From positions 28,162-92,161 of the forward strand of contig JACRCZ010000056.1 of the NCBI GenBank assembly GCA_016218765.1: DNA of 64,000 bases, given 5' to 3'. The stretch is from Deltaproteobacteria bacterium (GTDB lineage: Bacteria > Myxococcota_A > Polyangia > DRWM01 > JAAZOP01). Within the stretch, counting starts at the first letter, position 1. The number at the start of each line of letters is the position of its first letter. Below the pieces are notes generated by a model that had not been told where the DNA came from, searched no databases, and saw nothing but the letters and a program-made list of their open reading frames with translations. Of this stretch, positions 325-14,100 are shown piece after piece. The translations under genes and the position numbers were made by a program.

Positions 325-942
325 TCACGGCGTCGTCGCCGGGCACGCGCGCCCGGCCTTGCCGGCCTCGAAGGCGCGCACAACGGATTCCTGCGCCGAC
401 GCGGGCAGGCGCAGGCGGAACGCGGAGAGGAAGTGCCGGTCGTCGAACGGCAGGACGCCGGATGCCGCCAGGGCGCCAAGGACGACGACGTTCTGTCCCT
501 GCCGCGACCCGCACGCTTCGGCAATGCCGACGGAGTCCACGTCCACGACCCGCACGCAGGTCCGCCGCAGCTCGCCGAGGATGTCGACCACGGGCGGATA
601 CTTCGCGGCGCCGAACGCGACGCTCGGCGGCACCCACGGCCCGACGGCGACGATGGCCGTCGTCCGGGGCGAGCAGTAGCGGAAGGCCCGCAGGGCCTCC
701 AGGGGCTCGAACGCCACGAGCACATCGGCCTCGCCGTCGCCGACCTGCGGCCCGTGCGCGGGTCCGACGACCACGGTCGAGACCACCGATCCTCCGCGCT
801 GGCTCATCCCGTGGATCTCGCTGAGGACGACATCCAGGCCGGCTGCCATCGCCGCGTCGCCGAGCAGCAGCGAGGCGAACAGCGAGCCCTGGCCGCCGAC
901 GCCGCAGAACACGAACCGCAGCGGCTGCGCCGTCCCCGTCAT
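325..942 (-). CDS. iorB: Indolepyruvate:ferredoxin oxidoreductase beta subunit
   Basis: Motifs CGVGGQGSLFAS, SEIHGMSQRGGSVVS, ADVLVAFEPLEALR and NVVVLGAL. The ATG at 942 overlaps the iorA stop (ATGA). Confidence 0.9.
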   Translation of the reverse strand: MTGTAQPLRFVFCGVGGQGSLFASLLLGDAAMAAGLDVVLSEIHGMSQRGGSVVSTVVVGPAHGPQVGDGEADVLVAFEPLEALRAFRYCSPRTTAIVAVGPWVPPSVAFGAAKYPPVVDILGELRRTCVRVVDVDSVGIAEACGSRQGQNVVVLGALAASGVLPFDDRHFLSAFRLRLPASAQESVVRAFEAGKAGRACPATTP

Positions 943-3900
943 GCCCCACTCCCCCACGGGCCCGGGGCGATCGCTCCGTTCGGGCACATCTGGGCGCAGA
1001 CGCTGCAGCCGTTGCACGACGTCGCATCGATCGCCGCCTTGCCCTCGCGCACCACGATCGCCGGGCAGGCGAGCGTCTCCACGCACGCCAGGCAGTGCCC
1101 GCACATCCCGCACGCCAGGCAGCGCGCCGCCTCCGCCTGCGCATGGTCCTGAGCGTCTCCCTCCCACAACCGCCGCTCACGGACGACCCGCCCCGGCTCG
1201 GGCACCTGCCACGAATCGTCGGTCCGCACGGCCGGCAAGTCGAGCGGCGCGGCGGCGGCGCCGCGGAGAAACACATCGATGCCCCAGGCGGCACGCTTGC
1301 CGGCCGCGATGGCGTCGACCACCGTCCACGGCCCGCTCACGGCGTCGCCACCGGCGAAGACGCCGGCGCGCTTCGTCGCCAGGGTCGTCGCGTCGACCTC
1401 GATGCGACCCGCCGGGTCGACCGCAAGTCCCAGCGCTTCCGCCGGTCCCGGATGGCCTTCCTGTCCGACGGCGACCACGACGAGGTCCGCATCCAGCTCG
1501 AATTCCTCGCCGGGGACGGGCACCGGGCGCGCGCGTCCCGAGCCGTCCGGCTCGACCAACCGCATGCGTGCGCACCGCAACCCCGCGACCCGGTCGTCCC
1601 GCCGGAGCACCTCGACCGGTCCCGCCAGGAGCTCGAACCGCACGCCCTCGCGTTCGGCGGCCTCGCGTTCCCCGGGTTCGGCGGACATCTCGGCCGCGGT
1701 GCGCCGGTAGGCCACGACGACGGAGCCGGCCCCTTGGCGCCGCGCGGTGCGGGCGGCATCGATCGCGGCGTTCCCGCCGCCGACGACGACGACCCGCGCG
1801 CCGGGCAGGCGCCGCGGGTCCCACGTCGCGCCTCCGGGGAGCGGCGAGGCGTCCGCCGCCGCCGCGAGCAGGTCGAGCGAATCGACGACGCCCTCCCCTG
1901 CCTCGCCCGGCACGGCGAGCCGCCGCGTGCGTCCGGCGCCCGTCGCCAGGAACAGCGCGTCGAAGCGCTCGGGGCCGGCGAGCAGTGCCTGCGCGTCGAC
2001 GTCCCGGCCGAGCTCAGCGCCCATCCGCAGCGTGACGCCCATCCGCCGGATGACGTCGATCTCGCGGCGCAGCACCTCGCGCGGCAGGCGGTGCGCGGGG
2101 ATGGCCGAGGCCATCAATCCGCCCGGCTCGCGCGCCCGGTCGAACACCGTCACGTCGTGGCCCCGGAGCCGCAGCTCGTACGCGGCTTGCAGCCCCGCGG
2201 GACCGGCGCCCACGACGGCGACACGCTTGCCCGTCGGCGACACGGCGGCCGCGCGGGCCAGGAGGTAGTGCTTCTCCGGCGGATCGTCGCTCGCGGCGGC
2301 ATGACGCTTGAGCGCGAGGATGGCCAGAGGGTCGTCGAGCTTCGCGCGCACACAGGCGGTCTCGCAGGGGTGGTGGCAGACGTGCCCGAGCGTCCCCGGG
2401 AAGGCGACGCGCTCGCGAATCAGCTCCAGCGCGGCGCGCGGCCGGCCGGCCGCGACGTGGGTGACGTAGCCCATGGCGCAGATTCCCGCGGGGCACGCCG
2501 CGGTGCAGGGCGGCGTGGGGGGCACGGCGGGACGAGTGCGCGCCGCCGAGGATCCGAACAGCTCCAGGCGGCGGGCGGAGCGGAACACCTTCGTGGCGGC
2601 GTCGAGCGGCACGGAACAGGGGCTTCGATCCGCGGTGGTGCCGCAGGTGCAGCAGTCGCCGGCCGCGACCTCGAACGGCGCCTTCGCCACGGTCCCCGCC
2701 GGCGGCTCGGGGTGCAGCCGGCACGGGGCGCGGAACAGGACGACCGCGACGCCGTCGTGCGCGATGGCGCGGCGGAGGCCCTGCACGGCGCCGGCGGTGT
2801 CGAGCGGGTCGAGGATCTCGAGGTGGGTGACGCCGCAGGCGCGGACGAGGTCCTCGATCTTCGCGTGGCGGAAGGCGCGGCCGGCGCGCTGGGCGGTGCC
2901 CGGATGCGGCTGGTGGCCGGTCATGGCCGTGGTGAGGTTGTCGAGGATGACGACGACCTGGCGGTACCCGCCGTGGACGGCGTTGAGCAGGCCGGTGATG
3001 CCGGAGTGGAAGAACGTCGAGTCGCCGATGTAGGCGAAGACCGGCTGGTCGGTCTGGCGCGAGAGCGAGGAGGCCAGGTTGATCGCGCCGCCCATGCAGA
3101 TGAGGTGGTCGGCCTGGTGGAAGGGCGGGCCGTAGCCGAGGGTGTAGCACCCGATGTCGTTCTCGAAGATCGCGCGGTCGCCGGTCGCCACCTTGGCGGC
3201 GTAGAACGCGGCGCGGTGCACGCAGCCCGCGCAGAGCACGGGCGGCCGGGGGGGGACGGCGAGGGCAGGGCGTGCGGGAGGGGGAGGAGGCGTCCACGCC
3301 GCGCCCGTCAGGGCGGCCACGGCGCCGGTCATCAGCGCCGCGTTGAACTCTCCCGTGCGCGGCAGGTGGCCCGAACGCTTGCCCAGCACCTGGGGCCGGC
3401 GCCGCGCGCGGAACGCCGCCAGCTCGACCTCGTGTTCCAGGAACGGCTCCAGCTCCTCGGCCACGAGGATCCGCCGCTTCCAGCGCAGGAACCGGCCGAG
3501 CATCTTCTCCGGCACGGGCCAGGTCATCCCCAGGCGCAGGACGGCGACCTGCTCGGCGACGCCGAGCGCGGACAGCGCGTCGAGCGCGTAGGCGTGGGCG
3601 ATGCCCGAGGCGACGATGCCGACGGTGCCTTCGCCGGCGGCGACATTGAAGGGTGAACTTTCCGAGATGCGGGCCGCCCGCGCCATCGCCTCGAAGTGCC
3701 GCCGGCGATTGGCCGGCGCGTTGGCGGGCATGTTCACGAAGCGGCGCGGGTCCCGGACGATGGCGGCGGGCGGCGGACGGATGGGCAGGATGTCGCCCAG
3801 CGTCACCGCGCCGCGCATGTGGGCCAGCCGCGTCGTGATGCGCAGGATCACGGGCAGCCCGACCTCCTCCGAGATGTCGAAGGCCGCGCGCGCCATGCGC

Positions 3901-4349
3901 CGCGCGTCCTCGGGCGAGGCCGGCTCGAGCACCGGCACGTCGGCCAGGCGGCCGTAGTGCCTCGTGTCCTGCTCCGTCTGGCTGGAGTGCTGGGCGGGGT
4001 CGTCGGCCACGACCAGGACGAAGCCCCCGATCACGCCGACCGCACCCAGCGTCAGGAACGGGTCCGCCGCGACGTTGAGCCCGACCTGCTTCATCGCCGA
4101 CAACGCGCGTCGTCCGCCCCAGGCCGCGCCCGCGGCCACCTCGATGGCGACCTTCTCGTTGGTCGAGTACTCGAAGTGGTGTCCCCGCTCGGCCGCCGTC
4201 CGGGCGAGCGTCTCGGAGACTTCCGTCGAGGGCGTGCCGGGATACGACGCGACGACGGCCACGCCGGCCTCGATCGCGCCGCGCGCAATTGCCTCGTTGG
4301 CCAGCATCAGGCGACGTTCCCCCGCGGCCTGGTCGAGCAGCGGATGCAT
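939..4349 (-). CDS. iorA: Indolepyruvate oxidoreductase alpha subunit fused to a GltD-like FAD/NAD(P)H oxidoreductase module, with a C-terminal 2x[4Fe-4S] domain
   Basis: IorA motifs LANEAIARGA, YPGTPSTE, NEKVA, KQVGLNVAADP, CAGCVHR, DIGCY and GDSTFFHSG..LDNLTTAMTGHQ. These are followed by the GltD-type PCTAACP..VCHHPCETAC, two Rossmann motifs (GAGPAG, GGGNAA) and GDAVSGP, then CGHCLAC..CP and CNGCSVCAQMCP. Start taken at ATG 4349. Confidence 0.9.
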   Translation of the reverse strand: MHPLLDQAAGERRLMLANEAIARGAIEAGVAVVASYPGTPSTEVSETLARTAAERGHHFEYSTNEKVAIEVAAGAAWGGRRALSAMKQVGLNVAADPFLTLGAVGVIGGFVLVVADDPAQHSSQTEQDTRHYGRLADVPVLEPASPEDARRMARAAFDISEEVGLPVILRITTRLAHMRGAVTLGDILPIRPPPAAIVRDPRRFVNMPANAPANRRRHFEAMARAARISESSPFNVAAGEGTVGIVASGIAHAYALDALSALGVAEQVAVLRLGMTWPVPEKMLGRFLRWKRRILVAEELEPFLEHEVELAAFRARRRPQVLGKRSGHLPRTGEFNAALMTGAVAALTGAAWTPPPPPARPALAVPPRPPVLCAGCVHRAAFYAAKVATGDRAIFENDIGCYTLGYGPPFHQADHLICMGGAINLASSLSRQTDQPVFAYIGDSTFFHSGITGLLNAVHGGYRQVVVILDNLTTAMTGHQPHPGTAQRAGRAFRHAKIEDLVRACGVTHLEILDPLDTAGAVQGLRRAIAHDGVAVVLFRAPCRLHPEPPAGTVAKAPFEVAAGDCCTCGTTADRSPCSVPLDAATKVFRSARRLELFGSSAARTRPAVPPTPPCTAACPAGICAMGYVTHVAAGRPRAALELIRERVAFPGTLGHVCHHPCETACVRAKLDDPLAILALKRHAAASDDPPEKHYLLARAAAVSPTGKRVAVVGAGPAGLQAAYELRLRGHDVTVFDRAREPGGLMASAIPAHRLPREVLRREIDVIRRMGVTLRMGAELGRDVDAQALLAGPERFDALFLATGAGRTRRLAVPGEAGEGVVDSLDLLAAAADASPLPGGATWDPRRLPGARVVVVGGGNAAIDAARTARRQGAGSVVVAYRRTAAEMSAEPGEREAAEREGVRFELLAGPVEVLRRDDRVAGLRCARMRLVEPDGSGRARPVPVPGEEFELDADLVVVAVGQEGHPGPAEALGLAVDPAGRIEVDATTLATKRAGVFAGGDAVSGPWTVVDAIAAGKRAAWGIDVFLRGAAAAPLDLPAVRTDDSWQVPEPGRVVRERRLWEGDAQDHAQAEAARCLACGMCGHCLACVETLACPAIVVREGKAAIDATSCNGCSVCAQMCPNGAIAPGPWGSGA

Positions 4350-4407
4350 CCGGGGCCGAAGGTTGCCTACATCGGGCCGCAAGGCAAGGAAATTGGGTTG
4401 TCGGTTC

Positions 4408-5031
4408 CTACCGCGTGGACGAGAAGGCGTCCGTCTCGTCGAGGGGCATGGCGATCTGGCGGGGGGCGTCGGGCTCGAAGCAGCGGCGGCAACGCGCCTC
4501 GTACTTCCCCTCCGCCCCGACGACGATGCGCTCGTCGGAGGCGATGAGCCGCTGCGAGCGGTTGGCCGGGGCGCCGCAGCGCGCGCAGACGGCGAGGGTC
4601 TTGGTGACGTACTCCGCGACGGCCAGGAGCTGCGGCACGGGCTCGAAAGGGCGGCCGAGGTAGTCCTGGTCGAGGCCGGCGACGATCACGCGCTTGCCGA
4701 GGTTGGCGAGTTTTTCGCAGACGTCCGCCACGTCGCGCCCGAAGAACTGGATCTCGTCGATCGCCACGACCTCGGTGCGATCCGCGACGTGGGCCAGGAT
4801 CTCCTCCGCCTTGGCGACCATCTCCGCCGGGACGCTCATGTCGCTGTGGCTGACGATCTGGTCGCGGCGGTAGCGGTCGTCGAGCTGCGGCTTGAAGACC
4901 TGCACGCGCTGGCGGGCGATCTGCGCGCGGCGCACGCGGCGGATCAGCTCCTCGCTCTTCCCGCTGAACATGCTGCCGCAGATCACCTCGATCGACCCGA
5001 GCCCGCGCACGAATCCGTGGAAGTCCGACAT
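4408..5031 (-). CDS. tdk: Thymidine kinase
   Basis: P-loop [25 protein letters not shown], and Zn ligands CARC/CRRC. An AGGAGG RBS precedes ATG 5031. Confidence 0.95.
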
Positions 5032-5116
5032 CCCGTCGCCCCTCCTGGCCGGCAGGGCGAGCCTAGCGGATCGGGAGGGCGCGGAGAAGGGGGGGAGGGA
5101 GGACGCGGGGGGGAGG

Positions 5117-5166
5117 GAGGGCGCGGAGATCCGGCTTACCGCTGAGACGCTGAGGGCGCTGAGAGG
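5117..5166. repeat. Dispersed 50-bp periodic element, copy 1 (copy 2 at 36021-36070)
   Basis: gagggcgcggagatccggcttaccgctgagacgctgagggcgctgagagg aligns to 36021-36070 with about 2 substitutions and 2 single-base indels. Confidence 0.8.
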
Positions 5167-5201
5167 AACGCTGAGAGCACAAGGGGGTGGGGCTACCCAC
5201 G

Positions 5202-5249
5202 ACCGCTCCACCGCTCCACCGCTCCACCGCTCCACCGCTCTACCGCTCT
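5202..5249. repeat. Tandem octamer (ACCGCTCC)4(ACCGCTCT)2
   Basis: Read directly. The array contains the TAG stop (5240-5242) of the adjacent minus-strand gene. Confidence 0.9.
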
Positions 5250-6445: not shown

Positions 6446-8167
6446 ATGCGCTTGTTGTCGTTCGCGGCCTTCGTCGCCTGGGGATGCGGACACGACTGGT
6501 CCGCCGCGGGCGACACGGGAACCGAGTCCGTTCCCGGCGATGCCGAAGACCTCGTCCCGGATGAGCCCGAAGCGGACGGGGATGCGGATGCGGACGACGA
6601 CGACGCGGCACCGACCGACGATGGGGCGCCCGACGGCGACGAGTGGGGGACGGAGTTTGACGGCGACGACGACGGCGGGGACGACGTCGACGGCGGGCAC
6701 GAGTGCGCGGTCGACTCCGACTGCGACGATGGCGACCCCTGTACGCTCGACCGTTGCGACGCGGACGCCCGGTGCGGGAACTTCGCGCAACCGGACGACA
6801 CCTCCTGCGGGACCGACTCGATCTGTTGCGCCGGGGCCTGCGTCGGTGCGCTCGACCCGGCCCACTGTCTGACCTGCGACCGGACCTGCTCGCCAGGTCC
6901 GCACGGCGCCGCGCTTTGCCTCCCGTCGGGATGCGGCCTGTCCTGCGAGCCCGGGTGGGGCCACTGCAACGCCGACTTCGTCGACGGCTGCGAGACCGCA
7001 CTGGCGGACGACGAATCGCACTGCGGCGGCTGCGGCACGGGCTGCTCCGAGGGGGAATCGTGCGTCGCCTCGGACTGCGTCGCGAGCTGGCAGCCGGTGA
7101 CCGACGCCGGCGCGCCGACGGCGCGACGCCACCACCGCGCGAGCTGGACGGGGACCGAGATGATCGTCTGGGGCGGGACGTCGGGGAGCGCGCTGCGCGA
7201 CGGCGGGCGCTACCGGCCGGCGGACGGCACGTGGACGACGATGGCGGCGGCGCCCGGGGCGATGGACGCGCGCTACCGACATGTCCAGGAGTGGACCGGA
7301 ACCGGGATGATCGTCTGGGGCGGTACGCGCAGCGGCGGTCTGGGCCTCGCTGCCGACGGCGGCGGCCTGTACGACCCGACCGGCAACACCTGGGCGATCA
7401 TCGACTCCGGCACCATCGAACGCTCCGATCCGACTTCCGTCTGGACCGGCACCGAGATGCTCGTCTGGGGCGGGCTGGTTTCCTGGCCGACGGCGGTGCG
7501 CGACGACGGCGTGCGCTACGACCCCGCGACCGACAACTGGGAGGTACTTCCGCCGATGAGCTGGAGCAGCCCCCGCTGGTCGGCCGTTGCGGTCTGGACG
7601 GGGACGACGATGCTGGTCTGGGGCGGTTGGCGGCAGACGACGGGGACCCCCAGCGCCACGGGCGATCGGTTCGATCCGGCGACCGGCGCGTGGCGGGCGA
7701 TGTCCACGACCGGCGCGCCCGCCGCGCGGGGGGCCGCCACGGCGGTGTGGACGGGGAGCGAGTTGCTCGTCTGGGGCGGCGCGACCAGCGATGCCGTGGG
7801 CTCCGCGCCGTCGGGCAGCCTGGGCGACGGCGGCGCGTACGATCCGGCGGCAGATACGTGGCGGGCCATCTCCCCCATCGGAGCGCCGAGCGCCCGGCAC
7901 CATTATTCGGCCGTGTGGACCGGCACTCGGATGATCGTCTGGGGCGGACAGCTCGCCAACGGCGATCCGGCCCTGGGTGACGGCGCCGCGTACGACCCCG
8001 CGACCGACACGTGGACGCCGATCACGATGTTCGGAGCGCCGGCCGCCCGTCGCGGACACACGGCGATCTGGACGGGCACGGAGATGGTCGTCTGGGGCGG
8101 CTCCACCGTCACGGGAAGCACGACCGTCCATTTCCGGGACGGGGGGCGCTTCACGCCGCGCGAGTAG
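6446..8167 (+). CDS. Lipoprotein with acidic linker, Cys-rich repeats and a 7-bladed Kelch-like beta-propeller
   Basis: Lipobox AWGC, CDDGDPCT-type Cys repeats, and seven copies of WTGxxMxVWGG followed by G..YDPATDxW. Confidence 0.8.
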   Translation: MRLLSFAAFVAWGCGHDWSAAGDTGTESVPGDAEDLVPDEPEADGDADADDDDAAPTDDGAPDGDEWGTEFDGDDDGGDDVDGGHECAVDSDCDDGDPCTLDRCDADARCGNFAQPDDTSCGTDSICCAGACVGALDPAHCLTCDRTCSPGPHGAALCLPSGCGLSCEPGWGHCNADFVDGCETALADDESHCGGCGTGCSEGESCVASDCVASWQPVTDAGAPTARRHHRASWTGTEMIVWGGTSGSALRDGGRYRPADGTWTTMAAAPGAMDARYRHVQEWTGTGMIVWGGTRSGGLGLAADGGGLYDPTGNTWAIIDSGTIERSDPTSVWTGTEMLVWGGLVSWPTAVRDDGVRYDPATDNWEVLPPMSWSSPRWSAVAVWTGTTMLVWGGWRQTTGTPSATGDRFDPATGAWRAMSTTGAPAARGAATAVWTGSELLVWGGATSDAVGSAPSGSLGDGGAYDPAADTWRAISPIGAPSARHHYSAVWTGTRMIVWGGQLANGDPALGDGAAYDPATDTWTPITMFGAPAARRGHTAIWTGTEMVVWGGSTVTGSTTVHFRDGGRFTPRE

Positions 8168-8197
8168 GTGCCCTTCCCCCGACGGTTCCGGTCCCCG

Positions 8198-11100
8198 CTA
8201 GCCCAGATACCCCCGCCTAGCCAAACCGAAGGGCAATGGCACCGAAGGGACGGAGGCGGGCGCGGCGGAGGAGGGATCCACTTCCATCATCGCCCATGCG
8301 GTCGCGACGGAGTCGTCGAGGACGTAGCGGGCGGTGAGGGTGCGGCCGCCGATGCTGGCGCGGTGGGCCTCGGCCTCGCCGACCAGCTCGACCGTCGCCT
8401 CGCCTTCGTGCATCCCGACCACACGCACGTCGCGCGGGTCGACGGCCATGCCAACCCCCAGGGCCTTCGTGACCGCCTCCTTCAGCGTCCACAACACGGT
8501 CGCGCCGTCGCCGTTGAGCCCGACCGCGCCGGCCAACCGCGCCTCGTCGTCCGTCAACACGTGACGCACGAACGCCTCGTCCCGCGGCTCCACACGCTCG
8601 ACGTCGACTCCCACGCGGGTGCCGGAATTCCGCGGCGCCAGCACCGCGATCGCCCTCCCCGCCCCGTGCGAGATGGCCAGGAGCGGCAAGAGGTGCTCCA
8701 GGTCCGTGCGACCCGCAACGCGCACCACCGGCGCGCCGCGGGGATCCGCCGCCACGCCGATGTCCTTGTCCCGGATCGCCGCGCCCTCCGTTTCCAGCAG
8801 GAACGCCGACACCAGACGCTTGGCGGCGACTCGCCCGCCCAGCCAGTCGACGCGGCGCTTGCGCGACCCGATCTGCCGGAACAACGTCGCCTCGGCCGGC
8901 CCCAGCACCGCCGCGGCCACCACGTCCGCACTCGCCGCCAGCACGTCCAACCGCACGTCGACGCTCTCGGGCGAATCGAGGAACGACGCCGTCGCCGGCC
9001 GCGCCCCGGCCAACGGACCGGTCTCGATCAACGCCACGTCGCGCAGCCGCTCGAACACCGCGCCGTCCTCCCCGAGCAGCTCGACGTCGAAGACGTGCAC
9101 GCGCGCGCCGGTTCCGGCGGCGGTCGTTCCTTCCTTGGCCCGCACGCGGACCACGATCTCCCGGCCGGGCGCCGGCGTGTCGAGACGTTCCGCGCGGCCG
9201 ATCCCGTGCGGCAACGCATTCACGCCGTGACGGCACATCGTCCAGAGCCCGGCGGCCTGCAACCCGATCTCGCGCAGGCGCGGCCCGCAGAGGTCCCCGA
9301 ACGTCGCATCGGCCGCCGACGGCGGAATCACCGCCCGCGCGACGAGCCCCTCCGGACCCACGCCCGTCGCCGCTGTCAGCACCCGGAAGCTCGGACCGTG
9401 GAAGAAGTGCCGGTAGATCTCCGGCGCTTCGGGCCCGCGCGCTTCCAGCAGCCGCAGTTGGCCCAGCGGCCCCAGCGTCGGGTCCCCCTTGGCGCTCCTT
9501 TGCGTTCTTGGCGCACTTTGCGCGAAATCCCTTCCCCCGTCGGACATCGCCGCGGCCTTCGCCCGGAAGTGCACCGCCTCCAGGGGTCGTCCCGTCGCCG
9601 CGGTCGAGCGCGACTCGAGCACGCACTCCACGCCGTCCGCTCCGCGCTTCGCCCGCGCGACGACCGTCACCGGCCGCCCCGGATGGGCGCGAACGGGGCG
9701 CTCGAAGGACACGTCCTCGATCGCCACGTTGCCCGCGCCAAGAACGCGGCGAGCGGCCTGGGTCATCAACTCCAGCCCGACGACGCCCGGGAGGACCGGG
9801 ATGCCCTCGATCACGTGATCGAAGAGGAAGGACTGCCGTTCGGGATCGAGGACCAGCGAAACCTCGGCCTCATCGACGGGGGCCGCGAGTCCGATGCCGC
9901 CTTCGCGGAGTTCGGCGGCAGAACCGTCGAACGACTTCGGGGCCGGAAGCGAAGGAACCATGACCGCGGGCGCAGCCGCGACGCTCGCCGCCTCGCCGGC
10001 GATACGGGGTTTCGCGAGCGCGCCGAGCTTCCCGCAGACGACGACCTCGCCGATGGCGCCGCGGTCGATGAGGTCAGCGGCGAGGGGCACGCCGATCTCC
10101 GGCGGCAGGAGGTCGACGCCGCGCTCGACGAGGATGGTGCGCATGCCGCCCGCGACGGCCATGCCGATGCCGTCCCAGCCGGTCCAATCGATGGCCAGCG
10201 CGCGCGTCGCCGGGTCGTTCGAGGTGATCTCCCACGCCAGGCGCGCGACGGTCTCGTTGGCCGCGGAGTAGTCGATCTGGCCTTCGTTGCCGAAGCGCCC
10301 GGCGACCGAGCCGAAGACCGTGAAGAACGCGGGGCGGTCGTCGCGCACCAGGGCCCACAGGTGCAGGGCGCCCAGCGCCTTGCCGCGAAAGACGCGGTCG
10401 AAGCCGGCCGCGGTCTTCGAGGCCAGGGGCCGGCTCTCCTCGACCCCGGCGCCGTGGACGACGCCGCCGATGCGGCCGAAGCGCTTCCGCACGCCGTCGA
10501 GCGCCCGCGCCACCGCGTCGCGATCCGAGAGATCGCACGACTCGTAGTGGACCTCGGATCCCGCCGCGCGGTAGGCGGTCAGCGCGGTCGCGGCGCCCTT
10601 CGCCCGGCGCAGCGGGACCAACTCGGCGTCGACGCGCGCCGGCGTCACGCGCTCGCCCATCGCCGTCAGGCGCTGCCGGATCGCGGCCCGCTCGGCCTCC
10701 AGATCCAGGTTCTCGGCGCCTTCGGGCGGCCGCGCCACGATGTCGAGCACCGCCAGGCGGCAGCGGTGCCGCCGCGCCAGCTCCGCGCCGATCGCCGCGG
10801 TGATGCCGCCGGCGCCGCCGGTGAGCACGACGACCGATTCGGGACCGAGGTCGGGCGAGCCGGCCGACGGGACCTCGCGCGCCAGCGCCGGCGAGCGCCT
10901 GCCGCCCGCTACCCCGACCTCGACCATGCCGTCCGCCGTCGCGGCCTCGGCCAGAATCGCCCCGACGACATCCGCGGCGCCGTTCAGCGGCGACACGTCG
11001 ACAGCCTTCACGACCGCCTGCGCCCACTCGCGCGCCACGGCCTTGGTGGCGCCGGTGAGCGCGGCGCCCAGCGTCGAGCCGGCCGGAGCGGTGCCGATGC

Positions 11101-14100
11101 CGCACGAGCCGCCGTTGCGGGTCAAGGTGATCAGGAACGAGTCGGCCACGGGCGTCCCGGCCTGCCGCTCGAAGGTCCGCGCCAGGTGGAAGAGGAACCG
11201 CACGCGGCCGTGGACTTGCGCCGCGTCGTCACCGCACGCGTCGGTGATGCCCAGCAGGTTGACGATGCCGAGCGGGCGGCCGACGGCGAAGCAGAAGCCG
11301 AGCGCCGACTCGAGGTCGGCCTCGAGATCGGCGCCGTCGCCCGCCGGCTCCGCGTAACGCAGCGGCAGCACCCGCACGCCCCGGCGCCGCAGCTCGGATT
11401 CGAGCTCACGGGCCCGCGGGCCGCCGTCGCTCGCCACGACCAGCGCACGACCCGCGACGGACGCGGCCTCCGCGGAAGGCGGAAGTCCCTCGTTGGCGAC
11501 ACCCCAGACGCGGAAGCGGCCTCCGCCGAGGTCGCCGAAGTCGATGCTCGTCGGGTCGAGGCGCTCGCCTTCCGGCGCCGGCGGGATGCTCGGCCGCACG
11601 CGGGCGGCGGGCCGCTCGGCCTTCGGCGTCGCGTCGACCGCGCGCAGGGTGTGGCGCACGACCCGGGTCTCCGGCCGCGCGTAGCCGGTCACCGCACGGA
11701 GCCAATCGGCGTGCTTCGTGGCGTCGATCCGCCCGTCGAGACGCTCCGCCACGCGGCGGTAGAGCGCGCAGGCGATCTGCGAGCCGAAGCCGGCGGCCAG
11801 GCGCAAGGCGTACTCGCACTCGTGGGGTCCGCCGCGCGAGAGGTTGAGGTCCCCCAGCTCGGGATCGGGCTCGCGCAGGTTGGGGATCGGCGGCGCCTCG
11901 CCGCGCACGAGCGCGGTGAGCGCGACGGCGTCTTCCAGGCCGGCGCCCATCGGGTGGCCGGTGTAGCCCTTGGTGTTGGTGACCAGGACGTGCCGGGCGT
12001 TTTCCCCGAAGGCGCGGCGCAGGGCGGCGATTTCGGCCGAGGCGCTGCCGCCGCGGGCCGGGGTGTAGGTCTCGTGGGACATGAACAGGCAGCGCGGCGC
12101 CAGGTCGGCGCGGGCGAGGCCGTGGAGGCGCTCCGCGTCCGCGACGAGCGCCTCGACCACCTCGGCCACGTGGCCGCTGTCCAGCCGCAGGGCATGGCCG
12201 CCGCTGTTGGCGCACCGGGTCGCCAGGACTTCCGCGAGCGGCATCACGCCGCGCTCGGCGCACGCCTCGGCGGTCTCGACGATGAGCGCGACGGCGCCCA
12301 TGCCGAGCAGCATGCCGTGGCGCCGCCGGTCGAACGGCAGCGCCGCGTCCTCGGCGCGCTCGTCCGTCGCCGCGGCGCCGGTGGCCAGGAACCCGGTGCC
12401 AATCCACGGCAGCAGCGCGTCGCTCGTCACGTCGTCGGCGCCGACGACGATCACCCGGCGGCAGCGGCCCGAGCGGATCCAGTCCTCGGCGGTCGCCAGC
12501 GCGAGCGACGTCGACGCGCACGCGGCATTGACCTGGAGGTTGGGGCCGGTGGCGCCGGTGAACGCGGCCACCTGGGCGTGCCCCAGGGCGAGCACCTCGA
12601 GCAGGAACGTCCGCGAGAACGACTTGGACGCGCCGCCGTTGTTGCGGGAGGCGATCTCGGAGGCGAAGCGGTCGTAGCCCGGGAAGGCCGAGGCGAAGAT
12701 CACTCCGGTCTCGCGGCCGACCGCCTCGGGCAGGCGCCAGCCGGCGCCGACGAACCCGCCGTTGCGCGTCGGCCGCTTCGTCTCGACCAGCGGCAGCCCG
12801 GCCTCGCGCAGCGCCTCGACCGTCGCCGCCAGCGCGAGGCGCGAGGTGGCGTCCAGGGTGCCGTCCAGCTCTTCCGAGGCGCCGTAGTCCTCGACCAGCC
12901 GCACGTCGTGGCCACGCGCGGCGAGCCGGATCACGTCGTCCGTGCTCTTCACCGCCGTCATCGTGGGCTCGCCGTCGGCGGCCTTGACGACGCGGACGAC
13001 GTTCTTGCGCACCATCTCCTGGCGCAGCCCTTCCGGGACCGAGTCGAACAGGGTCTCGCCGCGCAGCAGGCGATCGAAGTGGGCGGGGTCGAACGGGTCG
13101 TCGACGCCGGGCAGGCCGAGCGCGAGGCCGCTCACCACGACGGGAGTGCGGGAGGGGCGCTCGACGACGACGGGGGGCGGTGGGACGGAAGGGGGGCGGG
13201 AGGGAGTCGTCGGTTTTCGGTTTTCGGTTTTCGGTTCCGGGCCGGACCCCGCATCCGAACCGCGGGCTTCAGCCCGCGGCTGAGCCGAGGCACCCAGGCG
13301 CAGGTCCAAGCCCGGGGAGCGGGCGTCGAGGTCGACGGGGACGCCGTCGGCCCAGAGGGTCGCCAGGCCCTCGAGCAGCGAGCGGATCTCGCCGCGCTTG
13401 GGGAGGTTGGTCGTGCAGGCCGTCACGCAGCGTCCGGCGAGGATCTCGCCGACGAAGCCGCTGAGGGCCTTCTTCGGGCCGCACTCGACGAAGACCGCGA
13501 CGCCGGACGCCGCCATGCGCTCGACGATGCCGATGAACTCGACCGGCGAGGCGACCTGGCGCGCGAGCAGCGTTCGGATGCCGTCCGGGGAGTCCGGGTA
13601 CGGCTCGGCGTTGACGTTGGAGTAGACGGGGATGGCCGGCGCGTGCACGTCGGCCGCGTCGAGCACCTGGCGCAGCGGGACGGAGGCGGATGCGACGACG
13701 GCGGAATGGAAGGCGTGGGAGACCGGCAGGCGCGTGCACGGCACACCGCGGGCGTCGAACAGCGCCATCGCCTTGCGCACGGCGTCGGTGGCGCCGGCGA
13801 TGATGGTCTGGGAGGGCGAGTTCTTGTTCGCGGGGAGGACGTAGCCCTCGACCTGCCGCAGGACGTCCTCGACGACGCCGAGCGGCGCGGCGACGGCGGC
13901 CATCCAGCCCGGGTCGCCGCCGGCCGGCGTCGCGGCGGCCATCTCGCGGCCGCGCGCCGCGACGATGCGCAGCGCCTCGTCGACGCGCAGCACGCCGCCG
14001 ACGACGCACGCGGCATACTCGCCCAGCGAATGTCCGGCCACCACGTCCGGCCGCAATCCGTGCTCGCCGAGCAGCCGGGCGATGGCGACGTCGCAGGCGA

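Follow-up and report, generated by a model that had tools for sequence, protein, structure and literature searches.

The gene that we refer to as iorA* encodes a subunit of the indolepyruvate:ferredoxin oxidoreductase (IOR) type into whose ferredoxin domain an iron-sulfur flavoprotein has been spliced, and we have confirmed it to be real and intact. It lies within a 64,000-nucleotide stretch of deltaproteobacterial DNA (contig JACRCZ010000056.1 of assembly GCA_016218765.1), the whole of which is hereafter called the window (G+C content of approximately 74%), and it is followed by iorB. We put at roughly three in five the probability that IorA* and IorB together form an IOR-type 2-oxoacid:NADP+ oxidoreductase (NADP+, nicotinamide adenine dinucleotide phosphate) with an NADP+ reductase of its own, one in which electrons would probably be delivered to NADP+ and not solely to free ferredoxin. 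The same full-length architecture recurs in at least 116 homologue clusters (38-47% identity, 97-99% coverage), which is far beyond chance, and it is widespread among uncultured microbes.

The coding sequence occupies a single frame on the minus strand (939..4382) that contains neither a stop nor a frameshift. This frame is open from a TTG at 4382, from which the residue numbers given here are counted, and translation probably starts at the ATG at 4349, where the homologues and an identical database protein (P0002) also begin, for a product of 1136 residues. A preliminary description of this DNA, made from its letters alone, had proposed an IorA with a GltD-like module inserted at the ferredoxin domain, and had suggested both a domain scan with hidden Markov models (HMMs) and a survey of the architecture. 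The scan, with Pfam and NCBIfam, returns POR_N, TPP_enzyme_C, Fer4_20, Pyr_redox_2 and Fer4 in that order. The IOR family model TIGR03336 (IOR_alpha) scores the whole protein at 678.9 bits against a cutoff of 650.9, and does so in two stretches that flank the flavoprotein block (model positions 2-562 on residues 23-587, and positions 550-595 on the extreme C-terminus). PRK12771 (NF009410, 'NAD(P)-binding protein') matches residues 610-1139 at 438.1 bits, below its cutoff of 516, and indicates kinship at the domain level only. The iorB start codon overlaps the stop codon of iorA* as ATGA, an arrangement that points to translational coupling; the single-chain enzyme envisaged in the preliminary description gives way to one in which IorB is a subunit of its own, coupled to IorA* in translation.

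Canonical IorA proteins of 600-640 residues (those of NaphS2, Desulfoluna, Archaeoglobus, Methanobrevibacter, Dehalobacter and others) align twice to the query protein (P0001), once from residue 10 to approximately residue 575, and again over residues 1093-1141. The C-terminal ferredoxin of these proteins has the form 'F/YxVDxxKC-x2-C-x2-C-x5-CPA ... ID...CxGCxxCAQxCPxxAI'. In IorA*, the first strand and first cysteine of this domain ('FEVAAGDC', ending in C577, the counterpart of the 'YxVDxxKC' start) are kept ahead of the insert, and the protein resumes after it with 'C-GH-C-LA-C-VETLA-CPAI ... CNGCSVCAQMCPNGAI'. The insert of approximately 510 residues sits directly behind the first cysteine of the domain, and the contiguous C-terminal 2x[4Fe-4S] arrangement of IorA is interrupted at this point. 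All the landmarks picked out in the preliminary description are present where it put them, with the broken ferredoxin start 'AAGDCCTCG' at residues 572-580 (nucleotides ~2643-2669), 'EAARCLACG' at the end of the module at residues 1084-1092, and an IorA-type two-cluster ferredoxin behind it at residues 1094-1140.

The origin of the terminal ferredoxin was assessed with two HMMs, one representing 70 canonical IorA C-termini and the other 29 C-termini of other stand-alone flavoproteins, against which the last 75 residues were scored. Nearly all of the fused proteins (21 of 22), together with all three split members described below, score 59-72 bits with the IorA model versus 30-50 bits with the stand-alone model, and stand-alone paralogues of the same genome display the reverse pattern (15-20 versus 40-44 bits). 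Because the IorA scores exceed the stand-alone scores, the terminal ferredoxin is IorA's own, and the insertion at the ferredoxin domain proposed in the preliminary description is borne out. Searched against the PDB, the C-terminal peptide yields generic ferredoxin matches only. Two of the stand-alone paralogues in the same genome (L006 and L008) were considered as donors of the insert and rejected, being distant in the tree and possessing a different type of ferredoxin.

By sequence, the solved structures closest to the inserted module are the large subunits of NfnABC from C. saccharolyticus and T. sibiricus and of StnABC from S. ovata, followed by classic NfnB, GltD and dihydropyrimidine dehydrogenase (DPD); together with the Fer4_20 (residues 623-697) and Pyr_redox_2 (residues 720-1028) matches, this upholds the earlier assignment of a GltD/NfnB-like module with iron-sulfur, flavin adenine dinucleotide (FAD) and NAD(P) folds. 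An AlphaFold2 model built on an alignment of 116 sequences has a mean pLDDT (predicted local distance difference test) of 86.8 and a pTM (predicted template modeling score) of 0.73, with low confidence in two linkers only, and it matches the alpha subunits of 2-oxoacid:ferredoxin oxidoreductases (OFORs) with Z 32-33. Exhaustive structural comparison of the module returns T. sibiricus NfnABC (Z 43.7, root-mean-square deviation (rmsd) 1.9 A, 433 residues, 40% identity) and S. ovata StnC (Z 42.9), and these matches span model residues 620-1096, including the segment after the flavin domains that bears a cysteine pair. Classic T. maritima NfnB aligns to residues 620-1045 only, the extra 50 residues being those that hold 'EAARC1088LAC1091'. 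In classic GltD and NfnB the cysteine pair stands at the N-terminus, directly before 'C...CP', as it does in a DPD-like paralogue of the same genome (L011, 'EALRCLGCHDAPCRCGCP'), whereas a pair after the flavin domains is found here, in the PRK12771-like paralogues L006 and L008 and, by structural match, in StnC and NfnABC.

Residue-level alignment equates C626, C630, C669, C673 and C677 of IorA* with C47, C51, C90, C96 and C100 of NfnB, and Y892, R893 and R894 with its YRR motif. The classic N-terminal NfnB ligand set for two [4Fe-4S] clusters (C39, C42, C47, C100; C51, C90, C96, E117) is incomplete in IorA*; five of the cysteine ligands are present and C39, C42 and E117 are replaced, and therefore three cluster ligands would have to come from elsewhere in the protein. 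Across the 116 clusters there are exactly three further invariant cysteines, C577, C1088 and C1091, and the resulting count is, we infer, consistent with four [4Fe-4S] clusters downstream of the one proximal to thiamine pyrophosphate (TPP). Also invariant in these clusters are the TPP motif (G453, D454, T456, N482), the four proximal-cluster cysteines (C384, C387, C412, C554), the five NfnB-type cysteines, six ferredoxin cysteines, the FAD motif (G725, G727, P728) and the NADPH motif (G868, G870, A873, D875). Members of the delta/myxo and split subfamily have three additional conserved cysteines beyond those found in all 116 (C580, C589 and C1094; window positions 2613-2678 and 1101-1103), which might together make up a fifth cluster or a site for a metal.

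At least 90% of the 116 clusters retain each of Y892, R893, R894 and C1097. YRR is assigned to the 2'-phosphate pocket of NfnB, and it has been found by experiment that a DsrL-2 bearing YRR is strictly NADP(H)-dependent, in contrast to DsrL-1 enzymes without it, which use NAD(H) (PMC7596348). Since YRR marks NADP(H) specificity in both NfnB and DsrL-2, the preference for NADP(H) that the preliminary description had read from 'AYRRT' (residues 891-895) is supported.

The survey of the architecture extended to 5.8 billion proteins, with identities taken from BLASTP. More than 120 homologue clusters, 1078-1195 residues in length, match the query at 37-45% identity over 96-99% of its length. Their sources are metagenome-assembled genomes (MAGs) of several phyla, among them Deltaproteobacteria-type and Dehalococcoidia MAGs, and their annotations go no further than 'indolepyruvate ferredoxin oxidoreductase subunit alpha' or 'FAD-dependent oxidoreductase'. 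When species-representative genomes were scanned, the full-length fusion turned up in Myxococcota, Dehalococcoidaceae, Deferrisomatales, Acidiferrobacteraceae and one other MAG. Among the 40 nearest genomes, the intact fusion is found within the genus at 92% identity, within the family at 65%, within the order at 45-46%, and in three more genomes of the class. One genome of the same order carries it as two adjacent frames that correspond to query residues 9-592 and 621-1138 (G008:C214:1481-4739), which may reflect either a split gene or a frameshift.

The best short relatives of residues 600-1147 (P0123, P0124 and P0129, the last from Bipolaricaulia) are, at 45-48% identity, as close as other fused members, and each is encoded in a three-gene operon that comprises an IorA core (549-558 residues, POR_N and TPP_C, no ferredoxin), a flavoprotein with ferredoxin (536-588 residues) and IorB. 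The split point is exactly the first junction of the fusion: the core ends after the fourth proximal-cluster cysteine ('SRHPCVLL*'), and the next gene opens with the ferredoxin-start motif 'VDLxRCKxCWNxEPGFRC'. Given that the split gene begins at the ferredoxin start, the unit composed of this start, the NfnB module and the remainder of the ferredoxin behaves as a delta-like subunit that has the flavoprotein within it. Other arrangements also occur. A Longimicrobiales MAG (L015:7938-10958) has the order IorA, complete ferredoxin and C-terminal flavoprotein, a Deferrisomatales MAG (L018:7911-11471) combines the inserted form with a second, terminal ferredoxin domain, and one protein of 1384 residues (P0036) includes the IorB domain as well.

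Quick maximum-likelihood trees, unrooted and with several long branches (L026, L018, L015), were made from 106 rows for the IorA core and 76 rows for the flavoprotein module. In both, the fused forms are spread over at least three places, each with its own support, and the Dehalococcoidia-type fusions form a clade with 100% support far from the group of delta/myxo and split forms. Fused forms at three or more supported places imply that the pairing has been made or kept repeatedly; core and module seem to travel together within lineages, with the pairing created, lost or exchanged several times. As the trees are unrooted and have long branches, we make no claim on the order or direction of these events, i.e. 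whether fused or split forms came first. Stand-alone relatives of the module in a Bathyarchaeia genome (L099:5001-6761) and a Desulfobacteraceae genome (L100:5001-6674) adjoin genes for HdrA-like, FlpD/MvhD-like and CCG-domain proteins, which suggests that the NADP(H) adaptor also plugs into Hdr-type complexes. With such neighbors, the module looks like a portable NADP(H) adaptor for iron-sulfur enzymes.

Upon this observed framework of architecture, cofactor-motif conservation, topology, distribution and split-operon equivalents, it is reasonable to postulate a mechanism. The TPP site would carry out the coenzyme A (CoA)-dependent oxidative decarboxylation of an arylpyruvate (or a related 2-oxoacid) to the corresponding acyl-CoA, and the two electrons would exit singly through the TPP-proximal [4Fe-4S] cluster to the clusters of the IorA ferredoxin domain. 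From there they would pass to the two clusters of the spliced-in NfnB-type module, whose FAD would collect both and deliver a hydride to NADP+. With the ferredoxin domain still in place, free ferredoxin may stay a second acceptor. The direction in which the electrons move, NADP+ as the physiological acceptor and arylpyruvates as the substrates are presumed in this scheme.

Several points weigh against this mechanism. The core stretch of the TIGR03336 match, taken alone in a six-frame search, scores 633.6 bits and falls below the cutoff of 650.9. Within the module, the positions of NfnB C39 and C42 are occupied by P618 and P621, and that of Glu117, a ligand of the proximal cluster in NfnB, by K692 (invariant in an alignment of 19 sequences and kept in 90% or more of the 116), and the ligation of the clusters, hence the electron wire, is deduced from the bookkeeping of cysteines. 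No aminotransferase or aryl-acid gene adjoins the operon here, and specificity for arylpyruvates cannot be read from the sequence. Last, because the closest solved relatives of the module sit in electron-bifurcating complexes, a downhill route to NADP+ is not the sole option.

It is possible, if somewhat unlikely, that ferredoxin is the main acceptor and that the module serves as a tethered ferredoxin:NADP+ oxidoreductase, a redox valve that diverts some electrons to NADPH, or feeds electrons from NADPH into the system when ferredoxin is oxidized. A complete IorA ferredoxin domain, conserved in all forms, would be in keeping with such a dual-acceptor enzyme, as would the second ferredoxin domain added in Deferrisomatales. 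However, this proposal is indistinguishable by sequence from the favored 2-oxoacid:NADP+ oxidoreductase, and is best regarded as a quantitative variant of it.

We are doubtful that the NfnB-type FAD splits or merges electron pairs among NADP(H), the TPP-side chain and an external partner, as might occur if NADPH drove the reductive carboxylation of arylacetyl-CoA in the synthesis of aromatic amino acids. The same module holds the bifurcating FAD in classic NfnAB, and its nearest solved relatives belong, as subunits, to two complexes that bifurcate, NfnABC and StnABC; however, the module in NfnABC and Stn is, as far as is known, the entry site for NADP(H) and not the bifurcating center, which counts against the proposal. 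Neither an NfnA/PyrK-like nor a HydB/C-like gene adjoins the operon here or in three other genomes, IorB is the sole conserved partner, and no high-potential third partner is evident. A bifurcating or confurcating 2-oxoacid enzyme whose FAD links NADP(H) with the low-potential chain on the TPP side and, by way of the retained domain, with external ferredoxin is, in our estimation, improbable. Were bifurcation to occur, it could, for instance, let NADPH assist the reductive carboxylation of arylacetyl-CoA, or save the ~150-200 mV that is otherwise given up between the 2-oxoacid couple and NADP+. The repeated independent assembly of the pairing, whether fused, split or C-terminal, would then point to bifurcating OFORs as a general class so far undescribed.

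GltD-like proteins have been annotated as sulfide dehydrogenase (SudA) and, as noted, stand-alone relatives of the module lie beside HdrA and FlpD genes, such that one might picture the module reducing a non-nucleotide acceptor (polysulfide, disulfide, O2 or quinone) or acting in a purely structural or regulatory capacity. This we regard as very improbable, in that the two Rossmann glycine motifs and YRR are preserved throughout the 116 clusters, which is unexpected for a decayed nucleotide site. Finally, an artefact of assembly or a frameshift joining separate iorA and gltD-like genes, which the preliminary description had named as grounds for abandoning its reading and which might be feared in a 154-contig MAG of ~80% completeness, can be set aside almost entirely: at least 116 independent clusters, drawn from many samples, show the same continuous frame, as do sister genomes with identities of 92% and 65%, and the IorA ferredoxin resumes after the insert in that frame.

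The operon here consists of iorA* and iorB alone, and iorB is likewise the sole conserved neighbor in three foreign loci (L093-L095), two of which have genes for AMP-binding ligases within 8 kb that are not adjacent. The genes that surround the operon are given with its features in the table below; the large ORF (open reading frame) that converges on iorB is of a kind typical of myxobacterial secreted proteins.

Features of iorA*, iorB and their surroundings (positions are those of the window, residues are counted from the TTG at 4382)
Feature	Position	Strand	Details
iorA-nfnB-like fusion gene (iorA*)	939..4349	(-)	1136 aa from ATG at 4349; 100% identical database protein P0002
POR_N domain (OFOR alpha-type)	3798..4280	(-)	residues 35-195; Pfam PF01855, E 8.9e-16
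TPP-binding domain TPP_enzyme_C PF02775 (residues 409-548) and proximal-cluster Cys	2721..3233	(-)	GDS..DN TPP motif; C384, C387, C412, C554
Start of IorA ferredoxin domain, retained	2613..2678	(-)	first strand 'FEV', invariant C577; C580 and C589 in delta/myxo subtype
NfnB/GltD-type cluster domain Fer4_20	2292..2516	(-)	residues 623-697; C626, C630, C669, C673, C677
FAD and NAD(P)H Rossmann domains, Pyr_redox_2	1299..2225	(-)	residues 720-1028; GAGPAG, GGGNAAID
YRR motif Y892 R893 R894, predicted NADP(H) 2'-phosphate site	1701..1709	(-)	alignment to NfnB; PMC7596348
'EAARCLAC' Cys pair after flavin domains	1110..1133	(-)	invariant E1084, C1088, C1091
Rest of IorA-type 2x[4Fe-4S] ferredoxin domain	963..1103	(-)	residues 1094-1140; Pfam Fer4 at 1118-1138
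iorB	325..942	(-)	205 aa, PF01558 POR/gamma domain
Thymidine kinase gene (tdk)	4408-5235	(-)	directly upstream of iorA*; looks unrelated to operon
Kelch-repeat protein, 573 aa	6446-8167	(+)	looks unrelated to operon
Large ORF with DUF4215 repeats and PPC domain	own genome C13:23518-27378 (L092:7319-11179)	+	just outside window; converges on iorB

The genome is a MAG of 5.9 Mb, and the nearest named carrier of the fusion is a Myxococcota MAG. It encodes at least seven GltD-like paralogues, together with three homologues of ADP-forming acyl-CoA synthetase that could turn the acyl-CoA product into ATP. A plausible route, as we infer it, would lead from an aromatic amino acid to the arylpyruvate, then to arylacetyl-CoA, CO2 and NADPH, and ultimately to arylacetate and ATP. 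Neither paaA nor paaK was found in the MAG, whose ~80% completeness leaves their absence from the organism undemonstrated. The same genome has an unfused OFOR operon (C66, ~6987-12204; L004, L010) that encodes alpha (POR_N and PFOR_II), beta (TPP_enzyme_C) and gamma (POR) subunits and continues with a 556-residue GltD-like flavoprotein, a 254-residue Fer2_4/Fer4 protein and a 114-residue dicluster ferredoxin; it is a second 2-oxoacid oxidoreductase tied to a GltD-like module in this organism. A further GltD-like module (C125:32593-34155, L007), in a frame of more than 1055 residues, is preceded by a cluster motif of the NuoF/HydB type ('SLCGLGQTAPNPV') and looks like a fusion in the style of NfnABC and Stn.

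Full-text searches of the literature gave no description of a fusion between IorA and a GltD/NfnB-type protein, the nearest being a remark by the authors of work on DsrL, who noted DsrL-like genes linked to OFOR subunit genes and then excluded them (PMC7596348). If the favored assignment as a 2-oxoacid:NADP+ oxidoreductase is true, many uncultured Myxococcota, Desulfobacterota, Dehalococcoidia, Bipolaricaulia and other bacteria would oxidize aromatic or other 2-oxoacids straight to NADPH without a ferredoxin sink. Reconstructions of amino-acid fermentation and redox balance from metagenomes would change as well, because the genes are now annotated as plain 'IorA' or 'FAD-dependent oxidoreductase'. 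It would also provide engineers with a compact OFOR of two genes, independent of ferredoxin, for regenerating NADPH or making acyl-CoA. Furthermore, the protein is a natural example of one redox domain residing inside another at a cluster-binding motif, with fused, split and re-ordered versions available for comparison.

Among known systems, the canonical IorAB of the Pyrococcus furiosus type (Mai and Adams 1994, cited in PMC5109826) shares with IorA*-IorB the POR_N and TPP domains, the four proximal-cluster cysteines, the IorA-type two-cluster ferredoxin and an iorB immediately downstream, and deltaproteobacterial and archaeal canonical IorA proteins are 38-48% identical to IorA*. It differs in having neither the iron-sulfur flavoprotein insert of ~510 residues nor the predicted acceptor, NADP+, which would act here instead of, or besides, free ferredoxin. 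DsrL, the NAD(P)H:acceptor oxidoreductase that serves dissimilatory sulfite reductase, resembles IorA* in its order of NfnB-type clusters, FAD, NAD(P), linker and C-terminal two-cluster ferredoxin, and in a YRR motif that predicts NADP(H). Its partner, however, is DsrAB and not an OFOR, whereas the C-terminal ferredoxin here is of the IorA type; a search for dsr-type genes, confined to the iorA* locus, found none there.

The NfnB-like NADP(H) modules in the large subunits of NfnABC (PDB 9n5u/9n5v, 9bov) and StnABC (8oh5 chain C) are alike to that of IorA* at 38-40% identity, Z 43-44 and an rmsd of ~2 A, and share both the cysteine-pair segment after the flavin domains and YRR. Theirs form part of a fusion with a formate-dehydrogenase-like domain and have HydB/C-like subunits as partners, whereas the module here lies inside the ferredoxin domain of an OFOR. 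The NfnAB transhydrogenase differs in its NfnA subunit (PyrK-like, [2Fe-2S] and FAD), which is not among the operon neighbors here or in L093-L095.

OFORs that reduce pyridine nucleotides are also known. Azoarcus evansii possesses a 2-oxoglutarate:NADP+ oxidoreductase, KorABC (KGOR), and a phenylglyoxylate:NAD+ oxidoreductase, PadEFGHI, and Euglena and Cryptosporidium a pyruvate:NADP+ oxidoreductase (PNO); the reference lists of PMC5109826 and PMC13768988 name Hirsch et al. 1998 and Rotte et al. 2001, respectively, for the Azoarcus and the protist enzymes. These enzymes likewise join an OFOR catalytic core to a flavoprotein that delivers electrons to the pyridine nucleotide, but do so through separate subunits or a C-terminal domain of the cytochrome-P450-reductase type. 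None of them is known to be an IOR or to carry the module inside its ferredoxin domain. IorA* is distinct from these pyridine-nucleotide-reducing OFORs in its IOR core, in its module of the NfnABC/Stn type, and in the insertion of that module at the first cluster motif of the ferredoxin domain.

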